Below, piece after piece: positions 11,955 through 63,903 of a stretch of DNA of 64,000 nt. Every line of letters begins with the position of its first letter. Position 1 is the first letter of the stretch. This DNA is from Patescibacteria group bacterium. GTDB lineage: Bacteria; Patescibacteriota; Patescibacteriia; 2-12-FULL-60-25. The position numbers and the translations under genes were made by a program. The stretch spans positions 7,210 through 71,209 of the forward strand of contig JBAYJJ010000001.1 in assembly GCA_041665165.1 (NCBI GenBank). The letters are read 5' to 3'. The notes beneath the pieces were generated by a model. The model was not told where the DNA came from. It searched no databases and saw only the letters and a list, made by a program, of their open reading frames with translations.

Positions 11955-13075
11955 ATTTGCTCAGGCATCGAAAACAACAAAGCGTTATCAACGAACTGGC
12001 CTGTTTTCTGTTTTAATTCGGCTCTCATGGCACCATTGTCCAAATACCCCATCCATTTTATTTTTGGCAAAAACATGCCCCCGTACCGCTCCTTGAAAAC
12101 GCTGATGGAAAGCTCCTTTGCGCTGGGAACATGATAAAGCTGGGGCGTAAAATACCTCTCGCCGATTTCATAGTATTTGAAACCTTTTTGTTTGTAATAC
12201 AGTATCGCTTCCCATTCCAACAAATGCCGTGGTGAATACTCTTTCTCGAATTCATCCAAATTGATTTGGGACCAGCCAAAGGCCATGCAATCGAATTCGC
12301 CGCAATACAAAAAACTGATTGCCTCGTCTTTCAGGTATGTTACGAACAGCGTGGCCTTGCCCTGGCGCATGCCGTCAAGCATGGAATCCCACGTCGCTTG
12401 CGGCCTGGTCATGCGGCCAGCCGACTTGATGTGCGTATCTTCGAAAATCTTGAAGATCCGATCGATTTGGTCCGCGTTGTTCTCTCTATTGAATACACGG
12501 ACCGCTAAGCCCTTTTTGTAACCGCGCTTTATATGCCTCAAATGGTACTTGCTCACATCCGCGCTCAAGTCCTCGATTTTCTTTTCCAGATCAACAGCGA
12601 TTGTGTTCTCGACCTCATAAATCAGGTTGTAGCGGAGCAGCTCGAACGTCGCGGGCTGGATGACTCCTCCCTCGTGCATAAACAGAGTGTTTAACGGATC
12701 CCAAAAAAAAGAAACTTCACTCGCCTTGTTTTCTTTGGCGAAGGCAAGGATTTCCGAAATAATGTTGTCCAGTATTTTCTTACGGTCTTGCCTGGGCATA
12801 GGCGCTACCACCGGCACGCCGCAAGGAGCATGGCCGAACGAAATAGAATGCACGCCCCTGTCTTTCAGATAACTGGACGCCAAGCTACAGATGGCGAGCG
12901 GCTTGCCTGTATGGTCGATGAACGCGAAAGAAGCGTTTTTTTCCACTTCCTCGAATTTCGAAAAATAGTCCAGCAGAGCCGCGGAATGAAAATGACAAGA
13001 ACCTGGCACGTTCAGCACCCAGGCATCCCACTCTTTTGCCGAAACATCAGAAAAAAGTACTTTTTTATACTCCAT
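11951..13075 (-). CDS. FemAB-like / BioF2-like GNAT-fold acyl(aminoacyl)transferase
   Basis: 374 aa with an ATGA overlap onto the next gene. The layout is W..W....HF.....L, then YHLRHIKRGYKKGL, then ATLFVTYLKDEAISFLYCGE....SPRHLLEWEAILYYKQKGFKYYEIGE. This is typical of the FemX/FemAB fold. Confidence 0.6.
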   Translation of the reverse strand: MEYKKVLFSDVSAKEWDAWVLNVPGSCHFHSAALLDYFSKFEEVEKNASFAFIDHTGKPLAICSLASSYLKDRGVHSISFGHAPCGVPVVAPMPRQDRKKILDNIISEILAFAKENKASEVSFFWDPLNTLFMHEGGVIQPATFELLRYNLIYEVENTIAVDLEKKIEDLSADVSKYHLRHIKRGYKKGLAVRVFNRENNADQIDRIFKIFEDTHIKSAGRMTRPQATWDSMLDGMRQGKATLFVTYLKDEAISFLYCGEFDCMAFGWSQINLDEFEKEYSPRHLLEWEAILYYKQKGFKYYEIGERYFTPQLYHVPSAKELSISVFKERYGGMFLPKIKWMGYLDNGAMRAELKQKTGQFVDNALLFSMPEQI

Positions 13076-13077
13076 AC

Positions 13078-14868
13078 CTACTGCCTTACATTATATACCT
13101 TATAAAAATATGATTCTGGATCTTTGAGCAAGTCCTGCGGTGCTCCTTGTTCGATGATTTTCCCTTCGGATAAAGCCATAATCCTATCCGCGCACAATAC
13201 GGTCGAGAGTCTGTGGGCGATGATGAGCACGGTTATCTTGCCCTTGAGCGACTCGATTACGTTTTGGATCTGCACCTCGGACTCGTTGTCCAATGCGCTC
13301 GTAGCCTCGTCCAAAACAAGCAACTTCGGCTTGCGGGCAAGGATTCTTGCGATAATGATCCTCTGGCGCTGCCCGTTCGAGAGCATGGTCCCGCGTTCGC
13401 CGACCAGCGTCTCGAATTTATTCGGCAAAGTCTGGATGAAATCGTATATATTGGCGCTCTTCGCCGCTTCCTCGATCTCGGCGTCGGAAATGCGCTTGTA
13501 GAAACGGATATTCTCCGCAATGGTGCCGTTCAGCAAAAACATGTCCTGTGATACATAGCCGATGCTGTTGCGCCATTTATCGAGGTTTATTTCGCTCACA
13601 TCGCGGCCATCCAACAGGATTTTTCCGGATGACGGATCAAGCAAACGCAAGGCCAAATCCATAAGCGTTGTCTTGCCCGCACCTGAAGGCCCGACTATGC
13701 CCACTATCTCTCCCCGCTTCACCGAAAAACTGACGCTGTTCAAGATTGGCCTGTCTTGGGCATAGGCAAAACCGACATCATCGAAATCAAAACTTTTCTT
13801 GAAGACAAAATCCGAAGCCGAACCCGTCTTTTCCTTACGTGATTTCATCTCATCTTCCAGCATATTCACTGACTGGAGGTAAGGCGCATACTCATTCAAC
13901 GCCCGATAATTGGATTGCATGGCCTGAAAATAAGTAAAAATGCGCTGGATCAAATAGACAATGGCTGCAAAAGCGCCGAGCTGGAAAGCTGCGGTCTTAT
14001 AATAAAATGCGAACAAGAAACAAATAAAGACAACCCCCATCGGCTGCATCAAGGCATCTCCCAGGGAGCGCTGAAATGCGATCTTGACGTAAGCATTCCG
14101 GTACTGTTCAAAATCATTTTTGCCCACGGTCGCGATTGAGTTGGCCACGGCCATGGTCTTGACAGTTTTCATGCCCATGACATTCTCGTTCAAAAAATGG
14201 GCAATGGTTTTGTTAACGGTTTCCATAATCCGCGAATTTTTGCGTGTTTTTCCGAAACTGGATTTCAAGAACCAGAAAAATACGACCCCGAGAATCAAGG
14301 TCATGGCCGTAATCGGCGCAGAGATGCTGAAAGCGATCAGCACATATACGGCCAAATTAGTGACGATTATGATTAGGGAACTGGTGTTCTCCAGAACCAA
14401 GGTCGCATAACGGACATTGGTCATTAAGACAGTTTCCAAATGACCCAAGCGCTGTTTGAGCAAAAACGACCAATCCGCATCCAAAAACAGTTCAAGCAAG
14501 GCCTGCCGCTTGTGATACTCATAGTTTGCCGAAATTCTGACTTTTATCCAGTTGCTCAAAATCAACATCAATGACCTTAAGATAAACAGACCGGCTATGA
14601 AAAGCAAAAGATATTTGAGGGTAAAACTCAATCCCAAAAGATTAAAAAAGCTTCCGATGAATTGGGTGAGCGCGTCTTGAGCGCCTGGGCCGCCAGAACT
14701 TTTGGTCAACAGCGAGAACAGCGGTATGAGCGAGCCCACGCCCACGCCTTCGAGCAAGCCGCTGAAAAAACCCAAAAAGACCATGACCCCGATACCCCAT
14801 TTGTATTTGCCAAATCCGTTGCTGACAAGCTTGATGAAGCGGACTGCGCGCAGTTGGTTCCAAGACAT
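13078..14868 (-). CDS. ABC exporter, fused permease-ATPase (MsbA/PglK type)
   Basis: The track start at 14892 is a GTG; the ATG at 14868 avoids overlap. It has six N-terminal hydrophobic segments, Walker A GPSGAGKTT, signature LSNGQRQR and Walker B LLVLDEATSALD. Confidence 0.85.
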   Translation of the reverse strand: MSWNQLRAVRFIKLVSNGFGKYKWGIGVMVFLGFFSGLLEGVGVGSLIPLFSLLTKSSGGPGAQDALTQFIGSFFNLLGLSFTLKYLLLFIAGLFILRSLMLILSNWIKVRISANYEYHKRQALLELFLDADWSFLLKQRLGHLETVLMTNVRYATLVLENTSSLIIIVTNLAVYVLIAFSISAPITAMTLILGVVFFWFLKSSFGKTRKNSRIMETVNKTIAHFLNENVMGMKTVKTMAVANSIATVGKNDFEQYRNAYVKIAFQRSLGDALMQPMGVVFICFLFAFYYKTAAFQLGAFAAIVYLIQRIFTYFQAMQSNYRALNEYAPYLQSVNMLEDEMKSRKEKTGSASDFVFKKSFDFDDVGFAYAQDRPILNSVSFSVKRGEIVGIVGPSGAGKTTLMDLALRLLDPSSGKILLDGRDVSEINLDKWRNSIGYVSQDMFLLNGTIAENIRFYKRISDAEIEEAAKSANIYDFIQTLPNKFETLVGERGTMLSNGQRQRIIIARILARKPKLLVLDEATSALDNESEVQIQNVIESLKGKITVLIIAHRLSTVLCADRIMALSEGKIIEQGAPQDLLKDPESYFYKVYNVRQ

Positions 14869-32913: not shown

Positions 32914-34101
32914 ATGGACCAAAAAGGCCTGACAATGATCCTGGTCACGAGCCAGGATTGGGGCGGCGTACAAGCCTATGTTTTGGATTTGGCTCTGGCT
33001 CTAAAGTCACGGGGTTTGCCGGTGATTGTTTGTGCAGGAAGACCCGAGAAGTTAGAAGTTAGAAGTTTGAAGTTAGACGTAGGACGAGAACTGGGCGATA
33101 AATGTCTAGAAGCAGGAATTGAGTTTATCGAGTTAAAAAGAATGATCCGTGACATTAACCCGATCTCAAATACGCGCGCTTTATTTGAATTGATCTCTTT
33201 GTTTAAAAAACATCAGCCGCATACAGTCCACTTGAACTCCAGCATGATGGGCGCAGTCGGATCTTTGGCAGCAAGAATCGCTGGTATTCAGCGCGTTGTA
33301 TATTGCATTGGCGGCTGGGCATTCAATGAGCAGATCTCCAGCTGGAAAAAAAGTCTTTACATAACAATCGAAAAAATCTCAGCGCGCTGGAAAGATGTGA
33401 TCATCTGCGTACACCCTGGCGATGAAAAACTGGCGTTGGACATAAAAATCAAACCGCGCGAAAAAGTCATGACCATCCCAAATGGCATTGACGTCAACTT
33501 ATTCCAATCTCAACTTCGTGATCGCGAAACCGCGCATTCGTTGTTAGCTGAACGATGTACGATGTACGATGTACGATGTACGGTTGTTGGCACGGTCGCC
33601 AATTCTTATCCACCGAAAAATCTTTTTTGGTATCTTGAAGTGTGCAAAACAATCACAGACAAGCACCCTGATTTCAAATTCGTGATTATCGGAGATGGCC
33701 CGCAGTTTGAAGAGTTGAAAGCCAAGCATGCGTCTCTGAATCTACAAGACAAGGTGATTCTGACAGGCCGCTTTGAATCAAAACTGCTTTACACGGCTTT
33801 TGATATTTCTGTCTTGCCTTCAACCAAAGAAGGCATGCCACTTGCAGTCTTAGAATCCATGGCTGCCAAAGTCCCCTGCGTCGTGACTGACGTCGGCGGG
33901 TGCAGATGGATGCTGCAGGACGAACAAGGCAGCGCTGGACTCGTGATCCCGCCAAACGACGACAAAGCCCTTGAGCAAGCTATCGAAAAACTTGCGTCAA
34001 ATTCCCTATTACGCCAAGAATTAAGCCAGCGCGCCTACAACCTAGTCACTGAGAAATTTAACTTGCAGGACACTCTGAACAAAACAATTGAAACACTGTG
34101 A
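32914..34101 (+). CDS. GT4 glycosyltransferase carrying two in-frame heptamer arrays
   Basis: 395 aa. MILVTSQDWGGVQAYV (an alternative start at 32935 is possible), then ...LPSTKEGMPLAVLESMAAKVPCVVTDVGG (EX7E). Two low-complexity inserts, KLEVRSLKLDVGRE and ERCTMYDVRCTVVG, are encoded by period-7 DNA. Confidence 0.8.
   Translation: MDQKGLTMILVTSQDWGGVQAYVLDLALALKSRGLPVIVCAGRPEKLEVRSLKLDVGRELGDKCLEAGIEFIELKRMIRDINPISNTRALFELISLFKKHQPHTVHLNSSMMGAVGSLAARIAGIQRVVYCIGGWAFNEQISSWKKSLYITIEKISARWKDVIICVHPGDEKLALDIKIKPREKVMTIPNGIDVNLFQSQLRDRETAHSLLAERCTMYDVRCTVVGTVANSYPPKNLFWYLEVCKTITDKHPDFKFVIIGDGPQFEELKAKHASLNLQDKVILTGRFESKLLYTAFDISVLPSTKEGMPLAVLESMAAKVPCVVTDVGGCRWMLQDEQGSAGLVIPPNDDKALEQAIEKLASNSLLRQELSQRAYNLVTEKFNLQDTLNKTIETL
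33048..33089. repeat. Heptamer array, 6 units (42 nt, in frame)
   Basis: GAAGTTA GAAGTTA GAAGTTT GAAGTTA GACGTAG GACGAGA. Confidence 0.8.
33552..33586. repeat. Heptamer array: (ACGATGT)x4 perfect plus one degenerate unit
   Basis: ACGATGT ACGATGT ACGATGT ACGATGT ACGGTTG, inside the GT4 coding frame. Confidence 0.85.
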
Positions 34102-42722: not shown

Positions 42723-42995
42723 ATGGAAAACTCGCCTATCCGTTTAAGTATTTCCCAGGCCGCACGCCTTTTTGGCATATCTGATCGCACTCTGCGCCGA
42801 GCAATCAGCTCTAACCAAATTAGATATGTAGTCGTGAAAAATCGATATCAACTTAACTTCGAATCCGTGCTGTCTTGGTCACAATCCAAACCCAAAGTTT
42901 TAAATAAACTTGAAAAGCAAGGCATAGGCCAATGGGTGGAGAAGTGGAAGATCAAAAATCCAAAATTCTCTCCTCGTCCGCCCCAAACCAACTGA
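42723..42995 (+). CDS. Small excisionase/MerR-type HTH DNA-binding protein
   Basis: 90 aa. LSISQAARLFGISDRTLRRAISSNQIRY is a helix-turn-helix, and the C-terminal tail is basic. Confidence 0.6.
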   Translation: MENSPIRLSISQAARLFGISDRTLRRAISSNQIRYVVVKNRYQLNFESVLSWSQSKPKVLNKLEKQGIGQWVEKWKIKNPKFSPRPPQTN

Positions 42996-43059
42996 CAACT
43001 CTAAACTTACAACTTACAAGAGCGTTCTGGTTACTCTTGTCAGTTGTACGTTGTCAGTT
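42990..43059. repeat. Inverted pair of heptamer arrays forming a long imperfect hairpin between convergent genes
   Basis: The left array is AACTGAC AACTCTA AACTTAC AACTTAC AAGAG and the right array is CTCTT GTCAGTT GTACGTT GTCAGTT. The reverse complement of the right array (AACTGAC AACGTAC AACTGAC) mirrors the left one. The left array includes the TGA at 42993-42995. Confidence 0.75.
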
Positions 43060-43071
43060 TTTGGTGTTTGA

Positions 43072-44289
43072 TCAAATAATTGACTTGTAGATTTTTTCGA
43101 GTTTATCGAGATGGTCATTCCAATTGAATTTTTTAACAAATTCTCCAGCCGCTTTTCCCATTGCGATCCTTTCGCCTTGATACATCCTTTCCATTTTTGA
43201 GATTGCAGCCACCCAAGATTCTACCTGGCCTGGTTCGGCCAAGAAGCCGGTCTTGCCATCCTCAACCATTTCTGGCAGGCCGCCGATTCTTGATGCAATC
43301 ACCGGCAGATTCATGCCCATGGCTTCGAGGACCGTGAGCGGCGCATTTTCATACCAGACCGACGGTATGAGCATGGCCTTTGCATTCACCCGAATGTTTT
43401 CCAGATCTTTGCCTGTTTTAAATCCCAAAAATTCTATGCACCCAGGCGCCAATCCGCGCGCCAAAGTCTCAAGCCTGATTTTTTCCGGGCCCGAACCTAT
43501 GATCTGAACTTTTATGTCTTTCAATAAAGCTGCGGCGCGAATTATTGTTTCAACGCCTTTTTCAGGGTACAGCCGGCCGACAAAAATATACGATCCATTC
43601 TCATTCCCCAGCGCTTTGACAGAATTTTCGTCAGCTGGATTCGGCACATACTGAAATTTGCCGGGTGGCTCGCCCCATTCAACCATCTTGTCCATCAAAA
43701 AGCGCGAAGGCGAAATAAACGTTGAGATTGTTTTTTCGTATGACTGAGAAACTTTAGTCATGCCCATTTCTAAAGCGCCCAAAATATTCGGCGCTATTCC
43801 GTTGAATAAGCATTGATGTGCGATCGCCTGATAATATTTCCCTCCCTTGCATCTTTCGCAAACTTGGCCTTGTGTGAACATCTTATAATTCGGACAAGCC
43901 AGCTTGTAATCATGCAAAGTCTGGACTGCTGGCACTTGCTTTTGCCTGATCACTTTAAGGATGCTGCTTGATAGATGGTGATAGATGTTGTGCAAATGAA
44001 CCACATCCGGCTTGACTTCATCGATCATCCTGGCAAGTTCGCGCGCCGCCTCGCTGTTCCATAAAAAGTTTTTAGCTTTTTTCGCATCTTTCGCCAGACC
44101 TTCGCGCTTGTCATAGGCATAGCGCGTAACGAAGTACTGGCTATCAAGGGATGGACGATTGCCTTCGCTCTTGGTGGAAAATATATGGACTTCATGCCCT
44201 CTGGCCTTTAATTTTTCCATCAAGGCAGGTATGTAAAACTCCGGCCCGCCGCGGTAATCAAAAAATTTATTTACTTGCAAGATTTTCAT
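43072..44289 (-). CDS. GT4 glycosyltransferase with a Cys-rich insertion
   Basis: 405 aa. MKILQVNKFFDYRGGPE, a CPNYK...CERCKGGKYYQAIAHQC insertion, and ...IPSVWYENAPLTVLEAMGMNLPVIASRIGGLPE (EX7E). Confidence 0.8.
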   Translation of the reverse strand: MKILQVNKFFDYRGGPEFYIPALMEKLKARGHEVHIFSTKSEGNRPSLDSQYFVTRYAYDKREGLAKDAKKAKNFLWNSEAARELARMIDEVKPDVVHLHNIYHHLSSSILKVIRQKQVPAVQTLHDYKLACPNYKMFTQGQVCERCKGGKYYQAIAHQCLFNGIAPNILGALEMGMTKVSQSYEKTISTFISPSRFLMDKMVEWGEPPGKFQYVPNPADENSVKALGNENGSYIFVGRLYPEKGVETIIRAAALLKDIKVQIIGSGPEKIRLETLARGLAPGCIEFLGFKTGKDLENIRVNAKAMLIPSVWYENAPLTVLEAMGMNLPVIASRIGGLPEMVEDGKTGFLAEPGQVESWVAAISKMERMYQGERIAMGKAAGEFVKKFNWNDHLDKLEKIYKSII

Positions 44290-46037
44290 ACATGGAAGAT
44301 GGTTGATGTTTTAATGGCTTCGGCCGAAAAAGGCGCCGGTAAATCCCCTTGTCCCAACATTTTTCGATAGAGGCCGGCATAGGCCTGAGCCATTTTTTCT
44401 TCGGAAAACTCATTCCACTTTTCTTTCATGGCCGTGGCATTGGCTTTAGCCACAAAATACATTGGCTTGTTCAGTACCTCTGCCAGCGCCTGCTGCAAAT
44501 CCTCCTCGCTGTTCGGTTTAACGAAAAGGACTTCATCTTGGTCAAATAGTTCTTTCAGCGGCCCTATGTCCGAAGCCACAATCGGCAAGCCAGCGACTGC
44601 AGCTTCAATCACAGCCAGGCCCAAGCCCTCCCACAAAGAGGGGAAGACAAAGACATCGTATTCAGCATACAAGTCAGCTGTGCTCACATTGCCCAAAAAT
44701 CTGACCCTGGCTTCAAGACTGAGCTGAGCGACTAAGCCTTCGAGCGCTGGTCGCAAACTGCCGCTGCCAGCGATATCCAATTTCCAGGGTCGTTTGATAT
44801 TGGCCAAAGCGCGCAAAAGCAGGATTGGATTTTTTTGTTCTTCCAGCCGTCCGACAAACAAGACGCGCGGCACGTCATGGAAAGGGCTAGCTGACCTTTT
44901 TTTGATTTTTGATAGGTCAATGCCGTTGTAAATGACTTTTATCTTTTCCTTTTTTATCCAGTAATCGCGCGCCATGTGTATTTTGACCTGATTGGAAACC
45001 GCCACATATGCGTCGCTGAAGCCGGAAAGCAGAATCAAGCTGACGCGCCCCAAAGTTCCATAATCGCAAAAAACATTATGCTCGGTCGTGATAACTCTTT
45101 CTGCTCCGGCAAACTTGGCTGCCAGCCTGCCCCAAGTATCAGACGCGAAAAGATGGGTATGCACGATCTGCGGCTTAAGATTTTTCAGGATATTGATCAG
45201 CTCGAAAAATATCTTGATTCGGCCATAACCTGGCACACGCTCAAGCTTGATGTAGTTTATGCCTTTGCTTTTTATCCTAGATTCAAGCGCGCCGCCGCTG
45301 ACTAAGCTGAGCATCATTGTCTCAAAACCGAGCTCTGGCAGTTTCTCGGACAGGTTCATGGCCACGATTTCTGCGCCGCCCATCAAAAAAGTCGGGAGCA
45401 CTTGCAAAACCAACGGGGATTCGGAAGAAGGGAAGAGCTCCAAGAGCCAGGCCCTGGAAAAATATTCAGGCAAACAGGCGGCAGTCAGCCCGTCCAGCCA
45501 ATCTGTAAGATGGAAATATTTATCTTTTTTCAAGCCTTTGCTACCGGACGCAATCCCTAAATTCATTGATCTAAAAACTCTAAAAGCATGTCCTCTTGTC
45601 GCATCTCTGATTTTTTCAAGCTTTTCCTTTTTCGATTCGACTTTGACGAACAGCCGGCCATTGTCTTTGATCTTGTTTTTTAATGCATCCAAAACAGACA
45701 AATCAAAATCAGGGGACACGATTGAATTGAATGTCTTGTTCGGCAGCTGCTCAAAATTGCCGATTATTCCGTTGAGTTCCAAGCCCGCGGCCGCAGCGAT
45801 TTCCTTGGCTTGTTCAAGATCCTTGTCCGAATCAAATGTCGCGGTCACTTGCATGCCCAAGGCCAAAAACGGAAGCGCGAGCTGAGGATCTTTGTTGCAC
45901 AAAATCGCGATGCCACAAGCTTCGTCGCTTGATTCCCAATGCCGGAGCGCGCCTTGCACGTAAAAATCCAACTCGCGCAGACCACCGAGCCGACGGTAGT
46001 GATTGCTTAAAGAGTGATAAGGTTGAGTTGGACGCAT
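44286..46037 (-). CDS. GT4 glycosyltransferase with an N-terminal Rossmann/methyltransferase-like domain
   Basis: The track start at 46046 is a TTG; the first ATG is at 46037. The N-terminal ~200 aa is GIAILCNKD...LGMQVTATFDSDKDLEQAKEI.... The C-terminal part is LQVLPTFLMGGAE...FPSLWEGLGLAVIEAAVAGLPIVASDIGPLKE. Confidence 0.7.
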   Translation of the reverse strand: MRPTQPYHSLSNHYRRLGGLRELDFYVQGALRHWESSDEACGIAILCNKDPQLALPFLALGMQVTATFDSDKDLEQAKEIAAAAGLELNGIIGNFEQLPNKTFNSIVSPDFDLSVLDALKNKIKDNGRLFVKVESKKEKLEKIRDATRGHAFRVFRSMNLGIASGSKGLKKDKYFHLTDWLDGLTAACLPEYFSRAWLLELFPSSESPLVLQVLPTFLMGGAEIVAMNLSEKLPELGFETMMLSLVSGGALESRIKSKGINYIKLERVPGYGRIKIFFELINILKNLKPQIVHTHLFASDTWGRLAAKFAGAERVITTEHNVFCDYGTLGRVSLILLSGFSDAYVAVSNQVKIHMARDYWIKKEKIKVIYNGIDLSKIKKRSASPFHDVPRVLFVGRLEEQKNPILLLRALANIKRPWKLDIAGSGSLRPALEGLVAQLSLEARVRFLGNVSTADLYAEYDVFVFPSLWEGLGLAVIEAAVAGLPIVASDIGPLKELFDQDEVLFVKPNSEEDLQQALAEVLNKPMYFVAKANATAMKEKWNEFSEEKMAQAYAGLYRKMLGQGDLPAPFSAEAIKTSTIFHV

Positions 46038-46043
46038 AACTAT

Positions 46044-46155
46044 CAATTAAAAATTCAAAATTGATAATTCAAAATTCAGGAGGCCTTTGGCTTTTATCTG
46101 GTAATCCGCGAAGCGGCACATGAACTTTGAATTTTGCATTTTTAATTTTGAATTA
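46044..46155. repeat. Inverted pair of AT-rich heptamer arrays flanking a 42-nt core
   Basis: The left array (46044-46078) is CAATTAA AAATTCA AAATTGA TAATTCA AAATTCA. The right array (46121-46155) is TGAACTT TGAATTT TGCATTT TTAATTT TGAATTA. TGAATTT is the exact reverse complement of AAATTCA. The right array covers the stop codon and last codons of the 46142 gene. Confidence 0.75.
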
Positions 46156-47647
46156 TTTCAGTTTCATTCGTCTCAAATATCTTAAGCGCAGCGAACAGGA
46201 TTCCGATGGGCAGCCAAAGATGGGCCGTCCAATAAGCTGTGTTGAAAAACTGATAGATGACAGCGCCCGCGGCACTGGCCGCCAAAATCACGCACACAAT
46301 CCGGGCCGTATCCTTCATGGGCTTGATTTTGGAAAACGCCAGCCAAAAACTTTCCAAAAGCACTAAGGCATAGGCAATGAGCCCCAGCGCGCCGGTTTCA
46401 GTCATAAGCTTTTGCGCAAACCCGTGCGCATCCAGCGGGGCGCCGAATTCCTGGGCAAACACTTGGGCATTAGCCACGCGCCCCAAAAAAGTGCCGGCAC
46501 CGCTGCCAATGACGGGCTGTTCCAAAAAAGAATAATAAGCGATTTCAGACAGCATCAAGCGCGTTGCATTTGAATCTTGCGCTGTGCGCGAAAAACTGAA
46601 ATATAATTGGAAGATGGCGAGCGGCGTGATGATCAAAATCAAAGTCGCGATCTCAAAAGCATATTGTTTTATCTTGTGCCTCCACAGAGTCAGCATCAAA
46701 AACACGATCTGGATGATCAGCACGATCCAGGCTGTGCGCGCCAAAGTCAGCAATGCGACAAGAGCTTGGAGGGCCGCCGCACCATACAGAAGATGGCGCG
46801 TGCGTGATTTTTTCGCCAGATATGCCAAAGCCAAAGTGCTCGGCGCAGTGAACAATAAAGTCTCAGCCAAAAGATTATGATTGTTGCCGAACAAATCAAA
46901 TCCAAACAAAGGTATGGGATGGGCGCGCCTGATTGTTTGGTTTGTGAACTCAAGGCTTACCAAAGACAACAACCCATCAACAGATGCGATAAGCCCAACT
47001 GTTGTCAAAATGCCCAGCGCGGCTTTAAGGCGCCGCAGAGATCTGATCAAATTGGCTGGCAAAGCAATGAATGCCACATAGCAAAAAACTACGGGTCGTA
47101 AAATAAATTTCAAGATTAAAACCGGATCCGGGCCATACGAGCTAAAAATTGAAATCAGATGTGCTGCAACCAATCCCAGATACGAACGCCAGATTGGCAA
47201 TTGAGGTTTCCAATTCGTGTCCCTGCGTCTGAACCAAAGAATGAAAACTTTAATGGCCCACGCCCCTATCACTAAGACCAAAAAGATTTCCCCCAGAAAA
47301 AGATCAATTGATCCGGCAAAGGCACTTTCTGCTGTGTCTGAAGTTCCTAATGGCACAGATACGGTCAAACCCAGCATGCAAGACAAAAAAAGCGCTATAT
47401 ATAGAAAAAAATACGTATATCTGTATGCCAAAATCATGCCTAAAATGGCGCAACCCAGCAAAACTGGGCCAAAAGGTAGGCCAAAAGCGACTAAAACTGA
47501 ACCAATGAACAAGACTAAAAACACTCCCCAGGAAAGCAAGGGCAAACTCCTGATTTTTTCGCTCAACCAAGGCGTTTTTAAGGCTTTAACGCTTTCCTCC
47601 ATTGTCCTAAAAGCATACCATGAGTTAGCCCTGGTAAAAAAGTGCAT
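46142..47647 (-). CDS. O-antigen ligase/polymerase-like (Wzy_C) membrane protein
   Basis: 501 aa with at least 10 hydrophobic segments. The central LTLARTAWIVLIIQ... region is typical of the O-antigen ligase family. Confidence 0.65.
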   Translation of the reverse strand: MHFFTRANSWYAFRTMEESVKALKTPWLSEKIRSLPLLSWGVFLVLFIGSVLVAFGLPFGPVLLGCAILGMILAYRYTYFFLYIALFLSCMLGLTVSVPLGTSDTAESAFAGSIDLFLGEIFLVLVIGAWAIKVFILWFRRRDTNWKPQLPIWRSYLGLVAAHLISIFSSYGPDPVLILKFILRPVVFCYVAFIALPANLIRSLRRLKAALGILTTVGLIASVDGLLSLVSLEFTNQTIRRAHPIPLFGFDLFGNNHNLLAETLLFTAPSTLALAYLAKKSRTRHLLYGAAALQALVALLTLARTAWIVLIIQIVFLMLTLWRHKIKQYAFEIATLILIITPLAIFQLYFSFSRTAQDSNATRLMLSEIAYYSFLEQPVIGSGAGTFLGRVANAQVFAQEFGAPLDAHGFAQKLMTETGALGLIAYALVLLESFWLAFSKIKPMKDTARIVCVILAASAAGAVIYQFFNTAYWTAHLWLPIGILFAALKIFETNETEIIQN

Positions 47648-58317: not shown

Positions 58318-60420
58318 CTAGTACTGCACTTCAAACATTCTGTCTTCCAGCGTATCAATTCTATATTCGTAGGCGTTATCTCCCCACTTGGCTTCTGCTT
58401 CGGCTGGGTCTGCTTTTTTGACTGTTGTCGGTAAAATTATTTTGACATCAATCTGAGTGTTGTCTGCGCCCGGTTGCTTGGGCCAATCAAGACGATAGTC
58501 GCCGCTCGTAACGTCCAGCGGCGGAAGTTGATAGGTAAAAGATAATTGACCGCTTTTGCCTGGTTCTATGGCCCAAAAAGCACCGTAGACTGTTTTGCCC
58601 AGCTCTTTCATGACATCTACTTTGCCTGCGACGAAGTTGCCGCCCGTGTTATGCAAATCATCGGCCATGGCGCCTTTGGCTGAAACAAAGGTGCTGCCAT
58701 CAGGTACATAAATGCGTGTGTAACTGCGATAGCGCGTATATCTCCAAGTGGATTGCTTGTTTGTATTCTTATAATTGAATGTGACGGTCGCTACTGGCTT
58801 TTGCGGATCGCGCGCATCCAAAACATATGAGACTGACTTTTGCATTACGCCATCAGTCTTAAGCGCCGCGAGATTCGCATCCACCACCCACAAGAAATCA
58901 CCAAGCGTTGGCTTAGCGCGCCCGCTCCAGCCATATTGATCCAGTTTTTTCTCAACATCCGCATTGCGCGAGTAGATGAGAATCTGCTTGCGGTTCAATG
59001 ACGTGGTCACAAGATCCAATAGCTCTGGCCAGCGCGACTTGGGCATATTTTGGATTTTGGCCATTATGGCCTGACCCACTTCGCCCATAAGCACCTTCCT
59101 ATCTTCGACTGAAATGCCTTGCTTGCCAAAACCGATTTCTACCTGATACTGCAAAGTATCAAAAAAGTTCTGGTCATTATATTCCTGGCCGCGGACATTT
59201 ACCGGCCCGGTTATCTTGAGTAGGGCTTCAAAAAACGCCGGCTCAAAAGCAACATAAACCGTTGGCTCAGAAATCTTGTTTCCAGCCAAGATGTTTTCTC
59301 TGGTATAAAAATCCAATACTTTATCGGCTGAAGTCGGGAAATCCGGCGACCAATTCGCATCGCGCATAAACCAAACTTTTGCCTTGAGATAATCCTGCAA
59401 AGGTTTCGGCGGAATTTCTTTCCAAGTTTGCGCTACTGGATTATCAACTTGATACACATCTGAAAAAACCATGTTCGTCATGTCCCCGCCTGTAACCTTG
59501 GCCGTGAACAAACTTCCGATAAAACCGCCCGAAGGGCGAATCTCGTCCGCATTCTGCAAAGCCACAAGATAATCTTGAGCATCTGGATAGCCAGCCAAAG
59601 GCACCATGACGTCGATCAAAGGAACGGCCTGGGTCAATGATTTTTGCATCACTGGCAAAGCATCAGCCAGTGGTTTCAAAGCTTGCTTGATGGGACCGGC
59701 GATCTGATTTTGCGGCAAAGCATTCCACAACCTGTAGGCCAAATCCATTTTGTCCCTGGCAAGCCTGATGTCTGGCAATGAATTGTATAAAACCCGAAGC
59801 AAGCTTAGTTTATTTTCCGGAGTCAGATCTTTCAGCCTGTCGCTGGGCGAAATCGGCACGCCGAGGCTATTGACTGCCTGCTGGCCAGTTGAAGCTGCAT
59901 CAAAAATCGCTGAAGCGACCTTAAGCAAATCCTCCATGCCTTCCATTGAATCCGCACTCACGACCGAGGCATCCTGCAGAATGCGCAACTGCGACCCTAT
60001 ATATGGGACATCTCTCCAAAAGCCCATGCCATTCAAAGCGACCTCCATGTTATTGAGTTCAAGTTTTGCCTTGGCCGAATACGCTTGGGCAGTGGCCATG
60101 TCCCCGGCCAGCAAAGCTGTCTGCATGTTAGAAAGCGCGACTCGGGCATTGTTGGCTGCCAAGCCAGCTTTAGCCAAAGCTATTCCCGGAGGCACGGTTG
60201 CAATCCCCAGCGCTATCACTAAAAACGCGACCACTATCCAAAAAAGCTTACGCTTCTTCCGCGGATTCGTAGCTCGTAGCTCGTAGCTCGTAGCTCGGTC
60301 TTTGTTTGTCGGCTGTGGTCTGTCGTCTGTGGTCTTAGTGTCGCGAAAAGCGTCCGCTTTGTGTGGCGGTTCGAGCTCGGGCACTCCCGGGCAAGTTAAA
60401 AAATTTGGATGCTCTTTCAT
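58318..60420 (-). CDS. DUF4012-type membrane-anchored protein
   Basis: The ATG at 60420 overlaps the upstream TAA by 1 nt (TAATG); the track start at 60540 overlaps 120 nt. It has one TM segment (LFWIVVAFLVIALGIATV) and then ...AKAGLAANNARVALSNMQTALLAGDMATAQAY..., typical of DUF4012. The N-terminal tail is encoded by a heptamer array. Confidence 0.7.
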   Translation of the reverse strand: MKEHPNFLTCPGVPELEPPHKADAFRDTKTTDDRPQPTNKDRATSYELRATNPRKKRKLFWIVVAFLVIALGIATVPPGIALAKAGLAANNARVALSNMQTALLAGDMATAQAYSAKAKLELNNMEVALNGMGFWRDVPYIGSQLRILQDASVVSADSMEGMEDLLKVASAIFDAASTGQQAVNSLGVPISPSDRLKDLTPENKLSLLRVLYNSLPDIRLARDKMDLAYRLWNALPQNQIAGPIKQALKPLADALPVMQKSLTQAVPLIDVMVPLAGYPDAQDYLVALQNADEIRPSGGFIGSLFTAKVTGGDMTNMVFSDVYQVDNPVAQTWKEIPPKPLQDYLKAKVWFMRDANWSPDFPTSADKVLDFYTRENILAGNKISEPTVYVAFEPAFFEALLKITGPVNVRGQEYNDQNFFDTLQYQVEIGFGKQGISVEDRKVLMGEVGQAIMAKIQNMPKSRWPELLDLVTTSLNRKQILIYSRNADVEKKLDQYGWSGRAKPTLGDFLWVVDANLAALKTDGVMQKSVSYVLDARDPQKPVATVTFNYKNTNKQSTWRYTRYRSYTRIYVPDGSTFVSAKGAMADDLHNTGGNFVAGKVDVMKELGKTVYGAFWAIEPGKSGQLSFTYQLPPLDVTSGDYRLDWPKQPGADNTQIDVKIILPTTVKKADPAEAEAKWGDNAYEYRIDTLEDRMFEVQY
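60267..60336. repeat. Heptamer array, 10 units, inside the DUF4012 coding sequence
   Basis: TCGTAGC x4 (perfect), then TCGGTCT TTGTTTG TCGGCTG TGGTCTG TCGTCTG TGGTCTT. On the coding strand the first block is (AGCTACG)n, the same unit as at 34138. It encodes ...TTDDRPQPTNKDRATSYELRATN.... Confidence 0.85.
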
Positions 60421-61298
60421 TAATCGATCGGACGAACGTGGGAATGCGGGTTTTTGGTCCCGCGGTACTTCCAGAAATAGTATACCGCACTTAAGATGTG
60501 TGCGCGCGCCGGCTTGTGGGTAATAAGGTGCCACGGCCAATCAATGGCACTTTCTCTTTGATGGTAATGAACAAGTTTGGCAGATGGCACATGCACCACT
60601 CTCCAGTTATAAACCCATGCCCTGCGGCAGATATCCAGCTCTTCCATGTACATGAAAAACTTTTCATCGAACACGCCAACTTCTTCCAAAGCTTTGCGCC
60701 TGATCATGATAGCCGAACCCATCATGGCATCCACTTCCAAAGGCTTTTGCTCGGACAAGACATCGCGCATGAAATAATGATGCAGATATCTTTTACCGGC
60801 CGATGTCTTACCCAAGATGGTGCGGCGGTAAAACGGCATCATGACTGTCGGGAATCTGTAGCAGGATTCTTGGCGCGTGCTATCCGGGTTATACAAAGCT
60901 GGGCCTGCCATTCCCACATCCGGGTGCGCATCCATAAACTCAACCAACTTCTCCATCTCGCCCGGAAAAATAGTGAGATCCGGATTGACTAGCATCACAT
61001 ACTCTCCCCTAGCTTGCCTTAAGGCCAGATTATTGCCCGCGCCAAAACCAACATTCCTGACAGAATCAATGACCTTGACCCACGAAAATCTTTCTTTGAC
61101 CATCTTGCCTGTGCCATCACCAACTGCGTTGTCCACCAAAAAATATTCAAAAGAAAAATCAAACTTAGCAGCCTCGGCGCCTTTGAGCAGCATACGGATA
61201 AGGCCCGGAGTGCGGAAGCAAACCGTAACAAAAGAAACTTTAGGATCAGGACCCCGCAACGGCTGTTGCGGGACTGAATTTTGGTTTATTTCGTTCAT
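60420..61298 (-). CDS. GT2 glycosyltransferase
   Basis: The track start at 61307 is a TTG; the ATG at 61298 forms an ATGA overlap with the upstream stop. Motifs are VSFVTVCFRT...YFLVDNAVGDGT...NVGFGAGNN...VMLVNPD (DxD). Confidence 0.8.
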   Translation of the reverse strand: MNEINQNSVPQQPLRGPDPKVSFVTVCFRTPGLIRMLLKGAEAAKFDFSFEYFLVDNAVGDGTGKMVKERFSWVKVIDSVRNVGFGAGNNLALRQARGEYVMLVNPDLTIFPGEMEKLVEFMDAHPDVGMAGPALYNPDSTRQESCYRFPTVMMPFYRRTILGKTSAGKRYLHHYFMRDVLSEQKPLEVDAMMGSAIMIRRKALEEVGVFDEKFFMYMEELDICRRAWVYNWRVVHVPSAKLVHYHQRESAIDWPWHLITHKPARAHILSAVYYFWKYRGTKNPHSHVRPID

Positions 61299-62356
61299 AC
61301 GAACCAAGGCCGGATTTTCTGCGCCCCCTCAGTGCAGATAGCCTTTAATTCTTTGCGCTTTTTCAGCATTTTTGGCAAACCGGCCAAAGCCGCTCCATAA
61401 CCCTTGAGCGATGACCATGAAAACAGCGCGGCAAGCATCTTACCTATTTCATACGGTAAAATCCAGAGCCCGTGCCATAAAAGGTCAGAAAAAGCCAGGT
61501 TCTTAGCCAAAACCCAGATATGATTGCGGCTCGAAAGATAGGTTACAAAAGCAGGATGCCCAAATCGCTTGAGCCAGACCGTAAAAACATTGGATCTTGG
61601 GCTGGAAGGCACACGGCGGTAGTGCCAGGCTACGGCCTTGGGCACTAAAGCTGATTTCATGCCCATGCGGCGCATGCGCCAAGCCACATCCACGTCTTCT
61701 TTATATGAATGGAAATCTTCATCAAAAAATTGACCATTGAGGCTGGAGCGCACCAAAGCTGAAGCGCGATAAAAAGCACAAGCGCCGGTCGGACCGAAAA
61801 TTTCCATTTCCTTGTCATACTGGCCCTCGTCGATTTGACCGGCTTTATCATCATAAGCGCGGCGCGCTTTTGTCATGTGTATGCCCAGCGAATCAATCAC
61901 ATTTGTTTTCTCTGTTTCTGCCCTGTCGCCAATGCCTGGACGCAAATGCGCCTTCAGAAGTTTTGGCATGGCGCTATCTATTTCCAAGTGGCTGTCCATG
62001 AAGCTGACCAATTCAAATATACAGTTTTGGTCCAGCACGATATCCGGATTGCATATCAAGATATAAGCGCGCGACAGATCTGAATCCTGCAGGCCTGAGA
62101 GAGCGAGTTGGATGGCCTGATTGTGAGCGCGCGTAAAACCATAGTTGCGCATGTTGCGCAAAACAGTCATACCCGGATATTCACTGGTCAGCCACTGCGC
62201 CACCCCATCAGTTGAGGCATTGTCCACCAAAATTATTCTATGCTGTTCGTTTTGGGCTTCAAGGCTTTCAAACAAGGATGGTAAATAAGCCATGGAGTTC
62301 CAGGCTACGATATTCACGGAAAGTCTTAGCTGATCCATATCTATTTCATGTAACAT
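61295..62356 (-). CDS. GT2 glycosyltransferase (rhamnosyltransferase-like)
   Basis: 353 aa. LSVNIVAWNS...IILVDNASTDG...NYGFTRAHNQ...ILICNPD. Confidence 0.8.
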   Translation of the reverse strand: MLHEIDMDQLRLSVNIVAWNSMAYLPSLFESLEAQNEQHRIILVDNASTDGVAQWLTSEYPGMTVLRNMRNYGFTRAHNQAIQLALSGLQDSDLSRAYILICNPDIVLDQNCIFELVSFMDSHLEIDSAMPKLLKAHLRPGIGDRAETEKTNVIDSLGIHMTKARRAYDDKAGQIDEGQYDKEMEIFGPTGACAFYRASALVRSSLNGQFFDEDFHSYKEDVDVAWRMRRMGMKSALVPKAVAWHYRRVPSSPRSNVFTVWLKRFGHPAFVTYLSSRNHIWVLAKNLAFSDLLWHGLWILPYEIGKMLAALFSWSSLKGYGAALAGLPKMLKKRKELKAICTEGAQKIRPWFV

Positions 62357-62410
62357 GTATCATATAACATATATCATCCGTCATGTTACATGTTGCGTGT
62401 TACATGTTTC
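62348..62410. repeat. Heptamer array, 9 units, spanning a gene junction
   Basis: ATGTAAC ATGTATC ATATAAC ATATATC ATCCGTC ATGTTAC ATGTTGC GTGTTAC ATGTTTC. It covers the start codon of the 61295-62356 gene, the 29-nt spacer, and the stop and last codons of the 62386-63903 gene. Confidence 0.8.
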
Positions 62411-63903
62411 GTGGATTCTTGTACGCGTTTAGGCGAAACATTAAAACCAAGCCGGCCAACACCTAGCATCATTCTGGTTTGGGCATCAATGGCCGGGAAC
62501 GCCCCGAAAATCACGAACGTCACAGGCAAAAGAAGCCACTGCAAGAATACGACTATCGGAGTCTGCCATTTAGAAACATGTTCTGGCCTGGGCGGTAGCA
62601 AAACCGCGGACAAGATAGCTGATGCGAACAAGCCAATCATGGCAAAACGCATAAGCCATTCCAAAGTAAACGGCGTGTTCTGAAAAATCGCATACGAACG
62701 GAAAGGCTCAGGTGCAAACCAAAACGGCAATCTGCCCAATAAAAAGATGAGCAAAGGCACAGTGGCCCAGGTATACATGCCCTCAACTTGCTTGAACATG
62801 AACCTGATTTTGACCATGAAAGGCATGGCCTTATCGCGCGAAAACTCCTGCGCCATGTAGGGAAAGTTTTCTACGCCCCAGGCCCAGCGCCGCATCTGCA
62901 GATACAGAGCTGTGAGAGCTTTTATATAAGATCCAGACATGACTGTGTCCATGGAAACTGGGAGATAAATAGGTGTGACGCGATAGTGGCCGTGGTACTT
63001 AATCAAACCTTTTAGAAAAATCCTGGAATCTTCATTCACCATATCATATGGATGAAAATCCACGTCCACCAGCATGCGCAAAGTCATGCTATGCGAAGAA
63101 AATGTCATCATGCCCTCGGACCTGGCCAACTCAGTCATGAGCCAAAATGTTGTACCGAACATGCAGACGCGCACCACGGCCGGTGATTCCCACAGATTGT
63201 TGTTATACAAAACAACCGGCTGGTAAGAGCTCCTATGCGGCTCAGGTATGGTCAAAAACTTATACGATACACAGGCCAAGTATTGAGGATGAGCCACTGT
63301 GTCAATATCAAAAGCCGAAACAATCACATCATCGATTTCAATGCCCATGCTCTTTATTTTTTCCAGCGCGGCCTGCTCCATCCAACGCATATTTGAACCT
63401 TTGCCCGGAATCTCCCCTGGCAGATCCTTAGGATGTACAGATGTGAGCAGAGCGGCAAATTTACCCCCGTATTCATTTACGATTGCTTTTGATTTTTCTT
63501 CAAAGCTTTCTTTGGCCCGTTCTTCGCCTCCCAACATCACAATCATCCTGTCTTTGGGATAGGTGGATTTAAGCAGCGAGTCCATGCAATCGCGAATTAC
63601 GATCAAATCTTCTTTGACCGTCGGAAGCATTATCAGATGATAGACTTTATCAAACCTGGGCAAAGCGCTGGCGTCTTTCAGCCAGTTACGCTTTGAGTCG
63701 CGACGGTAAGAATACCAGGCAACGACCACAAACGGCAGGTAGTAGATAACGCGGAACAGCCAATACAGATCGTACACGATCACGAAGTACACGATCCAAA
63801 GCGGCTGAAGAAAAGACAAAACCACCATGCCGATGATAGTAATCCAGACAAGAGCGCCTGGAATGATTTCGAAAAATCTTTTTTCCAATCTTGCTTTGTC
63901 CAT
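62386..63903 (-). CDS. Membrane-embedded processive-type GT2 synthase (cellulose/chitin-synthase-like)
   Basis: 505 aa. It has N- and C-terminal TM bundles around a cytoplasmic GT2 domain (VYHLIMLPTVKE...SAFDIDT...) and the QxxRW-type motif LQMRRWAWG. Confidence 0.7.
   Translation of the reverse strand: MDKARLEKRFFEIIPGALVWITIIGMVVLSFLQPLWIVYFVIVYDLYWLFRVIYYLPFVVVAWYSYRRDSKRNWLKDASALPRFDKVYHLIMLPTVKEDLIVIRDCMDSLLKSTYPKDRMIVMLGGEERAKESFEEKSKAIVNEYGGKFAALLTSVHPKDLPGEIPGKGSNMRWMEQAALEKIKSMGIEIDDVIVSAFDIDTVAHPQYLACVSYKFLTIPEPHRSSYQPVVLYNNNLWESPAVVRVCMFGTTFWLMTELARSEGMMTFSSHSMTLRMLVDVDFHPYDMVNEDSRIFLKGLIKYHGHYRVTPIYLPVSMDTVMSGSYIKALTALYLQMRRWAWGVENFPYMAQEFSRDKAMPFMVKIRFMFKQVEGMYTWATVPLLIFLLGRLPFWFAPEPFRSYAIFQNTPFTLEWLMRFAMIGLFASAILSAVLLPPRPEHVSKWQTPIVVFLQWLLLPVTFVIFGAFPAIDAQTRMMLGVGRLGFNVSPKRVQESTKHVTRNM

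Follow-up and report, generated by a model that had tools for sequence, protein, structure and literature searches.

What is the sequence that separates a Wzy-like gene from the GT4 glycosyltransferase gene beside it in the genome of a member of the Patescibacteria? The stretch analysed here (the window) comprises 64,000 nucleotides of GenBank assembly GCA_041665165.1 (contig JBAYJJ010000001.1, positions 7,210 to 71,209 of the forward strand), and the spacer in question consists of two arrays of tandem heptamers that face each other around a short core. An earlier note on this DNA, made from the sequence alone, compared the arrangement to a miniature inverted-repeat element. Our analysis supports this comparison and extends it. 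With a probability of roughly three in four, the locus (46045-46154, ~110 nt) is a non-autonomous, gene-less copy, similar to a miniature inverted-repeat transposable element (MITE), of a genus-restricted selfish element that resembles the intervening sequences (IVS) of rRNA genes and carries a gene of the PF05635/TIGR02436 (S23p) family. The reading of the earlier note is thereby refined, as the parent is an element of ~480 nt with a PF05635/S23p gene and not an insertion sequence (IS) that encodes a transposase.

The locus

Both arrays were found by Tandem Repeats Finder (TRF). The left array has a period-7 consensus of AATTCAA and the right array of TGAATTT, each with 4.9 copies and 81% matches, and the core between them (46079-46120) is 42 nt in length with 23 G+C (55%), in agreement with the earlier description of facing arrays around a G+C-richer core. 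The array units had also been taken for exact reverse complements that form stems of about 35 bp. This is true of the consensus units, but the individual units are imperfect (AATTAAA, AATTGAT, TTTTGCA and TTTTTAA are among the deviants) and the predicted arm stem is shorter, at ~25-28 bp with internal mismatches. The core is predicted to form two small hairpins, called A and B below; the positions of all features are given in Table 1.

The Wzy-like open reading frame (ORF; 46142-47647 on the minus strand, with a Wzy_C domain, PF04932) ends in ...ETEIIQN-TAA, and its last five codons and stop fall within the right arm. The ATG of the GT4 ORF (44286-46037 on the minus strand, Glycos_transf_1 / Glyco_transf_4) lies 7 nt from the left arm, and the bases between the two contain no Shine-Dalgarno sequence. 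These relations to the neighbouring genes had both been read correctly from the sequence. The copy itself contains no ORF, of the S23p/PF05635 type or other, and no rRNA was found within the 64-kb window.

A multi-copy family restricted to one genus

In what follows G000 is the genome of the window (1.18 Mb, 58 contigs) and other G numbers are its congeners; all are draft metagenome-assembled genomes. Genomes across the class measure 0.7-1.5 Mb at near-full completeness, in keeping with Patescibacteria. A covariance model (R1) was built on the architecture of the locus and used to search the genomes. In G000 it detects 15 full and 2 coreless copies. Of 21 congeners 16 have the family, and copy numbers range from 0 to ~41 per genome. 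A search for the core, suggested in the earlier note as a check, thus shows it to be multi-copy in the genome and in congeners. Matches to the model are 124-137 nt long. The same searches found no copy in three sister genera of the same family and almost none across the class. The genome richest in copies is G013, where they are up to 97% identical to one another. A metagenome scan for the two-hairpin signature yielded 13 stretches, almost all of them from one sample. There was no match to Rfam at the gathering threshold in the window, and the locus drew only chance-level matches to miRNA precursors (E of at least 0.27). In the coreless members the arms abut directly (G000:C12:19751-19815) or are 11 nt apart (G000:C25:8494-8582).

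The family is part of a larger population of heptamer arrays. Over the 1.18 Mb of G000, TRF reports 399 rows at period 7, vs 36 at period 6 and 69 at period 8, and the period-7 rows sort into 122 unit classes. The window holds many further period-7 arrays, several of them as facing pairs with other units. The distribution of array sizes is concentrated at 4.4-4.6 units (90th percentile 4.9); the arm length is nearly fixed at ~4.5 units and not broadly spread.

Filled and empty sites

The flanks of ten G000 copies were joined without the element and searched against the congeners. In the closest relative, G020, with flanks that are 87-94% identical, five G000 sites align across the junction with only 13-31 extra bases, and several sites are empty also in G008, G014, G005, G010, G009 or G013. 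At one junction G020 reads tttcaTAgtttaaac, vs ctcaTA[ATTC...GAAT]TGttaaac in G000; at another the empty site reads gccaTAttttt in three genomes and the filled site gccaTA[...]TAttttt. The base just outside the first AATTC unit is a T at 73 of 102 element ends (72%), where a continuing array would give an A, so that the termini read TA|ATTC...GAAT|TA; at the left end of the copy in the window the outer base is a C. Of five clean empty sites, four have a single TA where the flanks meet; these junctions are few and the DNA is AT-rich. TA termini are among the hallmarks tabulated for Correia, ERIC, RUP and some Rickettsia palindromic elements (RPE) (PMC2229807, Table 1).

The check for an empty orthologous site thus gave a positive result at five other sites in G000, but not at the locus itself, which in G020 holds a different heptamer-armed hairpin. 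Both flanking genes are retained there at 80-87% identity, and conservation between the two genomes runs to ...GGACGCAT on one side and to ...LFAALKIFET on the other. Between these points G020 has (AAGTAGN)3-16 nt-(AACTTCN)3, and here, too, the Wzy-like gene takes its tail (EKLEVGS) and stop from an arm. Three further G000 sites carry a different heptamer element in G020. The occurrence of different elements at the same sites indicates that short spacers in this genus have been repeatedly occupied and re-occupied by this class of element, the insertion sites of which turn over rapidly. The rewritten C-terminus and stop codon of the Wzy-like gene are certainly a consequence of the element at the locus.

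Two further observations concern the insertion sites. An arm-derived tail I-I-Q-N-stop terminates two unrelated genes in G000, the Wzy-like gene and the gene upstream of the copy at G000:C10:25730; the latter ends EAHIRIIQN* in G000 vs EAHIKITK* at the empty site in G005. The flanks of another site, the orthologue of G000:C5:7498, are split between two contigs, G020:C80 and G020:C76. This suggests that heptamer elements break short-read assemblies, so that the copy numbers from draft genomes are underestimates.

A gene-bearing parent and a deletion intermediate

Genes with a PF05635 domain number 10 in G000 and 0-15 in the congeners, and a match was obtained in only 1 of 14 control genomes. 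In G000, 8 of the 10 lie between inverted heptamer arrays, each gene with its own unit, and these units are those of the gene-less hairpin families. The element that corresponds to the locus is G000:C13:12044-12522 (~480 nt). Its left arm (AATGCAA AATTCAA AATTCAT AATGCAA AAT) is followed by GGTAGCTTCGCAT, a degenerate hairpin A. Next come an AT-rich linker and an ORF of 120 aa, and after the ORF AATCCCGCAGGGCA, which is hairpin B; (AATTTTG)4.6 forms the right arm. The predicted protein matches TIGR02436 "four helix bundle protein" with an E value of 1e-27 and PDB 2RLD (five chains) with 1e-24. A protein 59% identical to it is encoded at G013:C3:175924, where (AATGCCA)n arms enclose hairpin A, here intact, followed by the gene and hairpin B, and this arm variant recurs in gene-less copies (e.g. 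L107). An intermediate is also present: in G013:C5 a truncated left arm is joined to the C-terminal half of a homologous gene, which is followed by hairpin B and the right arm. The shared arms and hairpins, together with the G013:C3 copy and the G013:C5 intermediate, indicate that the 125-nt copies are internal-deletion derivatives that have lost the gene from the linker between hairpins A and B.

The gene-bearing copies have a characteristic location. Several (G000:C13:12007-12530, L192; L198 in G013:C3; L200 in G016) lie between a direct repeat GTTC-N7-GTTC (or GAAC-N7-GAAC) and the start of lexA; in others (L199 in G004:C6; L204 in G015; the truncated L193 in G013:C5) the same repeat is on one side and the start of recA on the other. 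We take GTTC-N7-GTTC to be a LexA box of the alphaproteobacterial type, and the PF05635 gene in these lexA and recA leaders may be co-transcribed under SOS control. Half of the ten PF05635 genes of G000 are found in G000:C13:3816-23891, which includes three complete heptamer-armed elements with different units in near-tandem arrangement (12044-12522, 13138-13558 and 13826-14230).

PF05635 genes and heptamer arrays across the genus

A heptamer array adjoins 30 of the 39 PF05635 genes that were sampled in the genus. For 21 genes there is an array on each side, and in 20 of these 21 the two are inverted relative to each other. Similarity of the arm units goes with identity of the proteins (Spearman -0.23, permutation p 0.0004), and at the least gene and arms are inherited as one unit.

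The number of arrays in a genome follows the number of these genes. Strong period-7 arrays were counted per 10 kb in unbiased samples of 80-240 kb from seven genomes. Densities are 0.04 in G008 and 0.49 in G005 (84% complete), both of which have 0 PF05635 genes; 0.33 in G017, with 1 gene; 0.62 in G010, with 7; 2.26 in G000, with 10; and 2.75 and 4.88 in G019 and G021, with 15 each. Array density and gene number are strongly correlated (rho 0.93, p 0.0026, n = 7), and over 22 genomes the PF05635 count is also correlated with the copy number of the family studied here (rho 0.57, p 0.0056). Period 7 is not enriched at all in G008. A spread of ~100-fold in array density within one genus cannot be explained by general slippage of the replisome.

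Fold and constraint

We aligned 53 copies in the orientation of the core that runs from hairpin A to hairpin B (alignment A3). The structure was specified by hand, with P1 consisting of the arms and an inner extension, P2 of hairpin A and P3 of hairpin B; modelled in this way, the predicted fold of the family is a three-way junction of these parts. Over the 53 copies 80.8% of cells are paired, vs 31-52% with the partners slid, and the arms are 78% paired over 37 columns, with the same 31-52% when slid. Pairs that change on both sides number 30, vs 19.4 ± 1.8 in shuffles, none of 500 of which reaches 30. Hairpin A, of the form GGCC-loop-GGCAT, is nearly invariant in sequence, with 96.9% of its cells paired and GCC/GGC in 31 of 56 copies. 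Hairpin B, of the form ATCCC, ATCGC or CCGC followed by a loop and the complement, covaries at 4 of 4 pairs (columns 87-97 hold CG in 34 copies, GC in 13 and AU in 2) and occurs with the stems TCCC/GGGA, TCGC/GCGA, CCGC/GCGG, TCAC/GTGA and TTGC/GCAA. In the arm heptamers it is the AA..CAA skeleton that pairs, while the two variable positions are often unpaired.

The fold predicted for the locus alone, another check named in the earlier note, is better than those of shuffled sequences; that the arrangement is not due to chance is seen in the family as a whole, in its 15 full copies and in the pairing over the 53 aligned copies. The minimum free energy is -31.8 kcal/mol on the plus strand (z -2.96; none of 200 shuffles equals it) and -26.9 kcal/mol on the minus strand (z -2.1). 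The small hairpin in the core, described previously as CCGC-GAAG-CGG with a UUCG tetraloop on the minus strand, is present, and so are the letters UUCG; however, it has a 4-bp stem and a 3-nt loop (46106-46116), and the minus strand reads CCGC-UUC-GCGG, which is not the canonical C(UUCG)G.

Relative to co-directional flanking genes, the core is in the sense orientation in 22 copies and antisense in 17. An apparent bias (10 of 11 copies one way) was rejected as an artefact, because MAFFT and the covariance model orient this quasi-palindrome by the asymmetry of its arms; the numbers above come from orientation by the core. On the mRNA strand G.U is not significantly more frequent than A.C (56 vs 43, p 0.23), folding energy shows no strand preference (9 of 16 copies favour one strand), and a scan for promoter-like or terminator-like signals found none. 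Mixed orientation, parity of G.U and A.C, and symmetric energy all indicate that the constraint is strand-neutral. It therefore fits recognition at the level of DNA or single-stranded DNA, and not an RNA selected in one orientation.

Alternative explanations

This strand neutrality bears directly on the possibility that the hairpin is a cis-acting RNA selected by the host in the operon spacer, either to couple translation of GT4 to termination of the Wzy-like gene or as a site of processing or stability. The layout of the locus would suit such a role, since the Wzy-like stop is inside the 5' arm, the GT4 start follows the 3' arm without a Shine-Dalgarno sequence, hairpin B covaries, the loops resemble stable RNA loops, and a stem of 25-30 bp is long enough for RNase III (PMC4990558; for Correia elements, PMC10969869). 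We nevertheless consider this explanation unlikely: in addition to the mixed core orientation, the parity of G.U and A.C and the symmetric folding energy, the sites are polymorphic between close relatives and flanked by unrelated genes, and searches for Rfam families and for promoter or terminator signals were negative. The mRNA is probably affected, but as a by-product, and such an effect is not what maintains the family. Slightly less probable again is a classical MITE, that is, a deletion derivative of a DDE-type IS of the IS630/Tc1-mariner kind that targets and duplicates TA and is mobilised in trans by the transposase of that IS. The size, the terminal inverted repeats (TIR), the long stem-loop and the 5'-TA-3' termini at 72% of ends agree with the MITE hallmarks tabulated by Delihas (PMC2229807, Table 1), duplication of TA fits four of the five clean filled/empty junctions, and the sole DDE_3 (IS630-type) match in the genus is in G013, the most copy-rich genome. 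That match, however, is a fragment (pieces of 128 aa and 95 aa) with neither heptamer arms nor matching terminal repeats, it has no counterpart in G000 and 19 other congeners, and where these arms and hairpins occur in a longer form, the gene between them is PF05635 and not a transposase. With this fragment as the only match in 22 genomes, an IS630/DDE_3 parent was rejected.

Strand-symmetric structure is also what would be expected of hairpins recognised in single-stranded DNA, such as a REP/REPIN-type palindrome moved by a RAYT (Y1 HUH) transposase or a palindrome-associated derivative of an IS200/IS605 element. Such an origin would agree with a dispersed intergenic palindrome that has small GC hairpins and lacks a clear long duplication of its target, but it is very improbable, given that a search of the 22 congeners found Y1_Tnp (PF01797) to be missing from both G000 and G013 and without relation to copy number; G007 has 13 Y1_Tnp copies but only ~3 elements. 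A RAYT/Y1 parent was rejected on the absence from G000 and G013. The Y1_Tnp genes of G007 are a matter of their own: eleven of the thirteen (IS200/IS605-type) are identical in score and represent a separate, recent IS expansion unrelated to the heptamer elements. Least probable of all is that the facing arrays were produced in place, by ordinary drift of an AT-rich spacer or by local polymerase slippage. Heptamer simple-sequence repeats are over-represented in many bacteria, for which slippage has been proposed (Mrazek 2007, as cited in PMC4679880 and PMC4692102). But core and arms together are found again at no fewer than 15 unrelated loci and in 16 congeners, empty sites exist, arm length is nearly fixed, and the density of arrays varies ~100-fold between congeners and follows the number of PF05635 genes; drift and slippage are refuted by these observations.

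Several points weigh against an origin from a PF05635-bearing parent. The element encodes no enzyme for cutting or joining DNA, PF05635 has no known catalytic activity, and mobility in trans is what we infer. The match between genes and arrays is also incomplete: G018 has ~13 gene-less copies and no close homologue of the cognate protein; G010, with its seven PF05635 genes, has few arrays and no copy of this family; and G005 retains some residual arrays in an incomplete genome with no PF05635 gene. The correlation between proteins and arms could reflect simple co-inheritance and not recognition. The copies in G000 are at most 83% identical to one another and show no sign of recent activity in this genome. 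Finally, only 4-5 junctions in AT-rich DNA speak for duplication of a TA target, which is plausible.

Proposed mechanism

Each arm of the family consists of ~4.5 tandem heptamers of type AA-NN-CAA and the core of hairpins A and B. On the reading that we prefer, that of a gene-less derivative of a PF05635-bearing element, one copy would have entered the short spacer between the Wzy-like and GT4 genes, or replaced another heptamer hairpin there. In the intercistronic RNA the arm stem is likely, by analogy, to be a substrate of RNase III and to mask the bases that directly precede the GT4 start; a stem of 25-30 bp in a polycistronic mRNA would be cleaved in the way that rRNA intervening sequences and Correia elements are. 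We infer that gene-less copies would be moved or maintained in trans by factors tied to the gene-bearing elements. The most likely such factor would be a ring-shaped PF05635 pentamer that reads about five sites at 7-nt spacing in each arm. Arrays of 4.4-4.6 units correspond to ~31 nt (4 x 7 + 3) and five sub-sites, which, as a hypothesis only, would suit one pentamer per arm; the TRAP ring, to which we liken this mode of reading, reads spaced triplets. The solved S23p structure is a homopentameric ring of unassigned function (PMC4990558), and PF05635 resembles Avd, an accessory protein of retroelements (PMC10053308).

A bolder proposal is possible, although we judge it somewhat more likely to be wrong than right. 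PF05635/S23p proteins and bacterial heptamer arrays may belong together as the two halves of a class of selfish element not described before, in which a pentamer would read ~5 sub-sites per arm, paralogs would co-evolve each with its own heptamer, and the gene copies in SOS leaders (lexA, recA) would drive the spread of the gene-less hairpins.

Relation to known elements

The parent has its closest counterpart in rRNA. The intervening sequences of rRNA genes are selfish, have complementary stems at their borders and are cut by RNase III, and some carry S23p (PMC4990558). Those with an S23p ORF, known from Leptospira, Coxiella burnetii and Brucella, are ~430-760 nt in length, contain a gene of ~120 aa for a four-helix bundle and are sporadically distributed (PMC4990558). 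The full-length element G000:C13:12044-12522 has the same layout, with a long complementary stem at its borders and an S23p gene. Unlike these sequences, which occupy helices 9, 25 or 45 of 23S rRNA or lie in 16S rRNA, the heptamer elements lie between protein genes or in their 5' leaders, the gene-bearing copies being upstream of lexA or recA; their stems consist of ~4.5 tandem heptamers with a separate unit for each paralog; and they have spawned gene-less derivatives of ~70-125 nt at dozens of sites, with up to 15 genes in a genome of ~1.3 Mb.

The gene-less copies correspond more closely to MITEs and to the Correia and NEMIS elements of Neisseria (PMC2229807, PMC10969869, PMC2649163), which are likewise non-coding, multi-copy stem-loops of 100-200 bp built on inverted repeats and occurring at filled and empty sites. 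By the definitions of Delihas (2008, PMC2229807) and Minnick (2024, PMC10969869), MITEs are small, dispersed and multi-copy, with stem-loop TIRs and filled and empty sites, and all of these properties were found here; a transposase-encoding parent with the same ends was not. As in Correia and NEMIS elements, insertions are near or in the ends of genes, and codons can be donated to ORFs; the 5'-TA-3' termini of those elements have a parallel here at 72% of ends. The RNA stem of Correia elements is cut by RNase III (PMC10969869). Unlike MITEs, the heptamer elements have arms that are tandem arrays and not unique TIRs, no promoter-like sequence was found in them, and their longer relative encodes PF05635. 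The element behaves as bacterial MITEs do, and its parent has the look of an intervening sequence located elsewhere than in rRNA. One defining property of each model is missing: a transposase-encoding parent for MITEs and a place in rRNA for intervening sequences.

Other likenesses are more partial. Rickettsia palindromic elements (PMC10969869, PMC2229807) are also small palindromes of a reduced genome that enter coding sequence, much as IIQN and a stop have been given to two genes here, but they are in frame in the interior of genes and have no heptamer arms and no known gene-bearing parent. REP/REPIN-RAYT systems (PMC3116915) share the pattern of scattered gene-less palindromes with a few copies that flank a small gene; the gene associated with the heptamer elements is PF05635 (once PDDEXK_3) and not a Y1 HUH transposase. 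The short tandemly repeated repetitive sequences (STRR) of cyanobacteria, the TAACTGA repeats of Beggiatoaceae, cyanobacteria and Bacteroidetes (PMC4679880), the GGGAATC repeats of Xanthomonas (PMC4692102) and the long simple-sequence repeats (LSSR) of Mrazek resemble our arrays in having 2-6 heptamers, a mostly intergenic location and a patchy distribution. Published arrays, too, are often a few bases from a start codon that lacks a Shine-Dalgarno sequence. In the reports on them the arrays figure as direct repeats or as regulatory sites, and inverted pairs around a hairpin core, filled and empty sites and linkage to PF05635 are not described there. Small dispersed hairpins nested in heptamer arrays of Nostoc were reportedly noticed by Elhai et al. 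in 2008. In the literature we found no paper on heptamer arrays as the paired arms of hairpin elements, none linking heptamer arrays to PF05635, and none on MITE-like elements in Patescibacteria.

Other heptamer elements and cargo

Two further gene-less hairpins in the window have gene-bearing forms elsewhere in the genome (Table 1). The second family, (AACTNAC)n-CAAGAGT-loop-ACTCTTG-(GTNAGTT)n, is represented in G000 by 17 or more gene-less copies, of which the window contains one, and in its gene-bearing copy (G000:C17:5434-5874) the same inner stem flanks a PF05635 gene. Two of its gene-less copies (C12:24123 and C36:5188) have extra small GC hairpins nested in the loop.

Table 1. Positions of the element, of adjoining gene ends and of two related hairpins in the 64-kb window.
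Feature	Position	Strand	Sequence and remarks
Left arm / outer half of stem P1	46045..46078	+	AATTAAA AATTCAA AATTGAT AATTCAA AATTCA; TRF, inverted-repeat pairs I1-I5, columns 9-45 of alignment A3
Hairpin A (P2)	46083..46091	+	GCC-TTT-GGC, GGAG just before; stem nearly invariant in the family, loop variable
AT-rich linker, hairpin A to hairpin B	46092..46105	+	Place of the PF05635 gene in the full-length element; alignment A3 vs G000:C13:12044-12522
Hairpin B (P3)	46106..46116	+	CCGC-GAA-GCGG; stem covaries between copies
Right arm	46121..46154	+	TGAACTT TGAATTT TGCATTT TTAATTT TGAATT; 4.9 heptamers, complement of the left arm
E-I-I-Q-N codons and TAA of Wzy-like gene	46142..46159	-	Contributed by the right arm
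ATG of GT4 gene	46035..46037	-	7 nt outside the left arm
Second-family gene-less hairpin	42989..43060	+	(AACTNAC)n-CAAGAG..loop..CTCTTG-(GTNAGTT)n; gene-bearing form G000:C17:5434-5874
Third-family gene-less hairpin	62342..62413	+	(AACATGT/AACATAT)n facing (ACATGTT)n; gene-bearing form G000:C13:13826-14230

A gene of another type is also found between arms. The only PDDEXK_3 (PF13366) gene of G000, at C8:17520-18035 (L196), is bracketed by inverted arrays, (TACGAAT)5 upstream and (TTCGTAA)2.9 downstream, so that the cargo of heptamer arms is of two kinds at the least. Several congeners rich in arrays (G004, G018, G020 and G002) have no PDDEXK_3.

Arrays are found within genes as well. Near-perfect and perfect arrays, (AGAAGTT)4.4 at 33047-33077 and (ACGATGT)4.4 at 33552-33582, lie inside the GT4 ORF 32914-34101, which is bona fide, with Pfam domains that cover residues 16-376; heptamer arrays thus occur also in coding sequence. 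At 60267-60335, in the N-terminal part of the DUF4012 ORF 58318-60540 (minus strand), a perfect (TCGTAGC)4.4 is followed by (TGTCGKC)4 in direct and not inverted arrangement.

Significance

In many bacteria no long simple repeats are as over-represented as those of heptamers, and a guess at slippage has been the sole explanation offered for them. S23p/PF05635 is a widespread protein of structural genomics, familiar chiefly through the intervening sequences of rRNA and its kinship with Avd. In one genus with ultra-small genomes, the heptamer repeats, S23p/PF05635 and the mobility of intervening sequences now appear as parts of one system. For annotation, the elements rewrite the ends of genes, occupy operon spacers and the leaders of SOS genes and probably account for breaks in assemblies. 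Questions about this system also become testable, through the binding of a protein of 120 aa to defined arrays and through mobility assays. If the bolder proposal above is true, rRNA intervening sequences, the STRRs of cyanobacteria and repeats of the TAACTGA type would be manifestations of one system.

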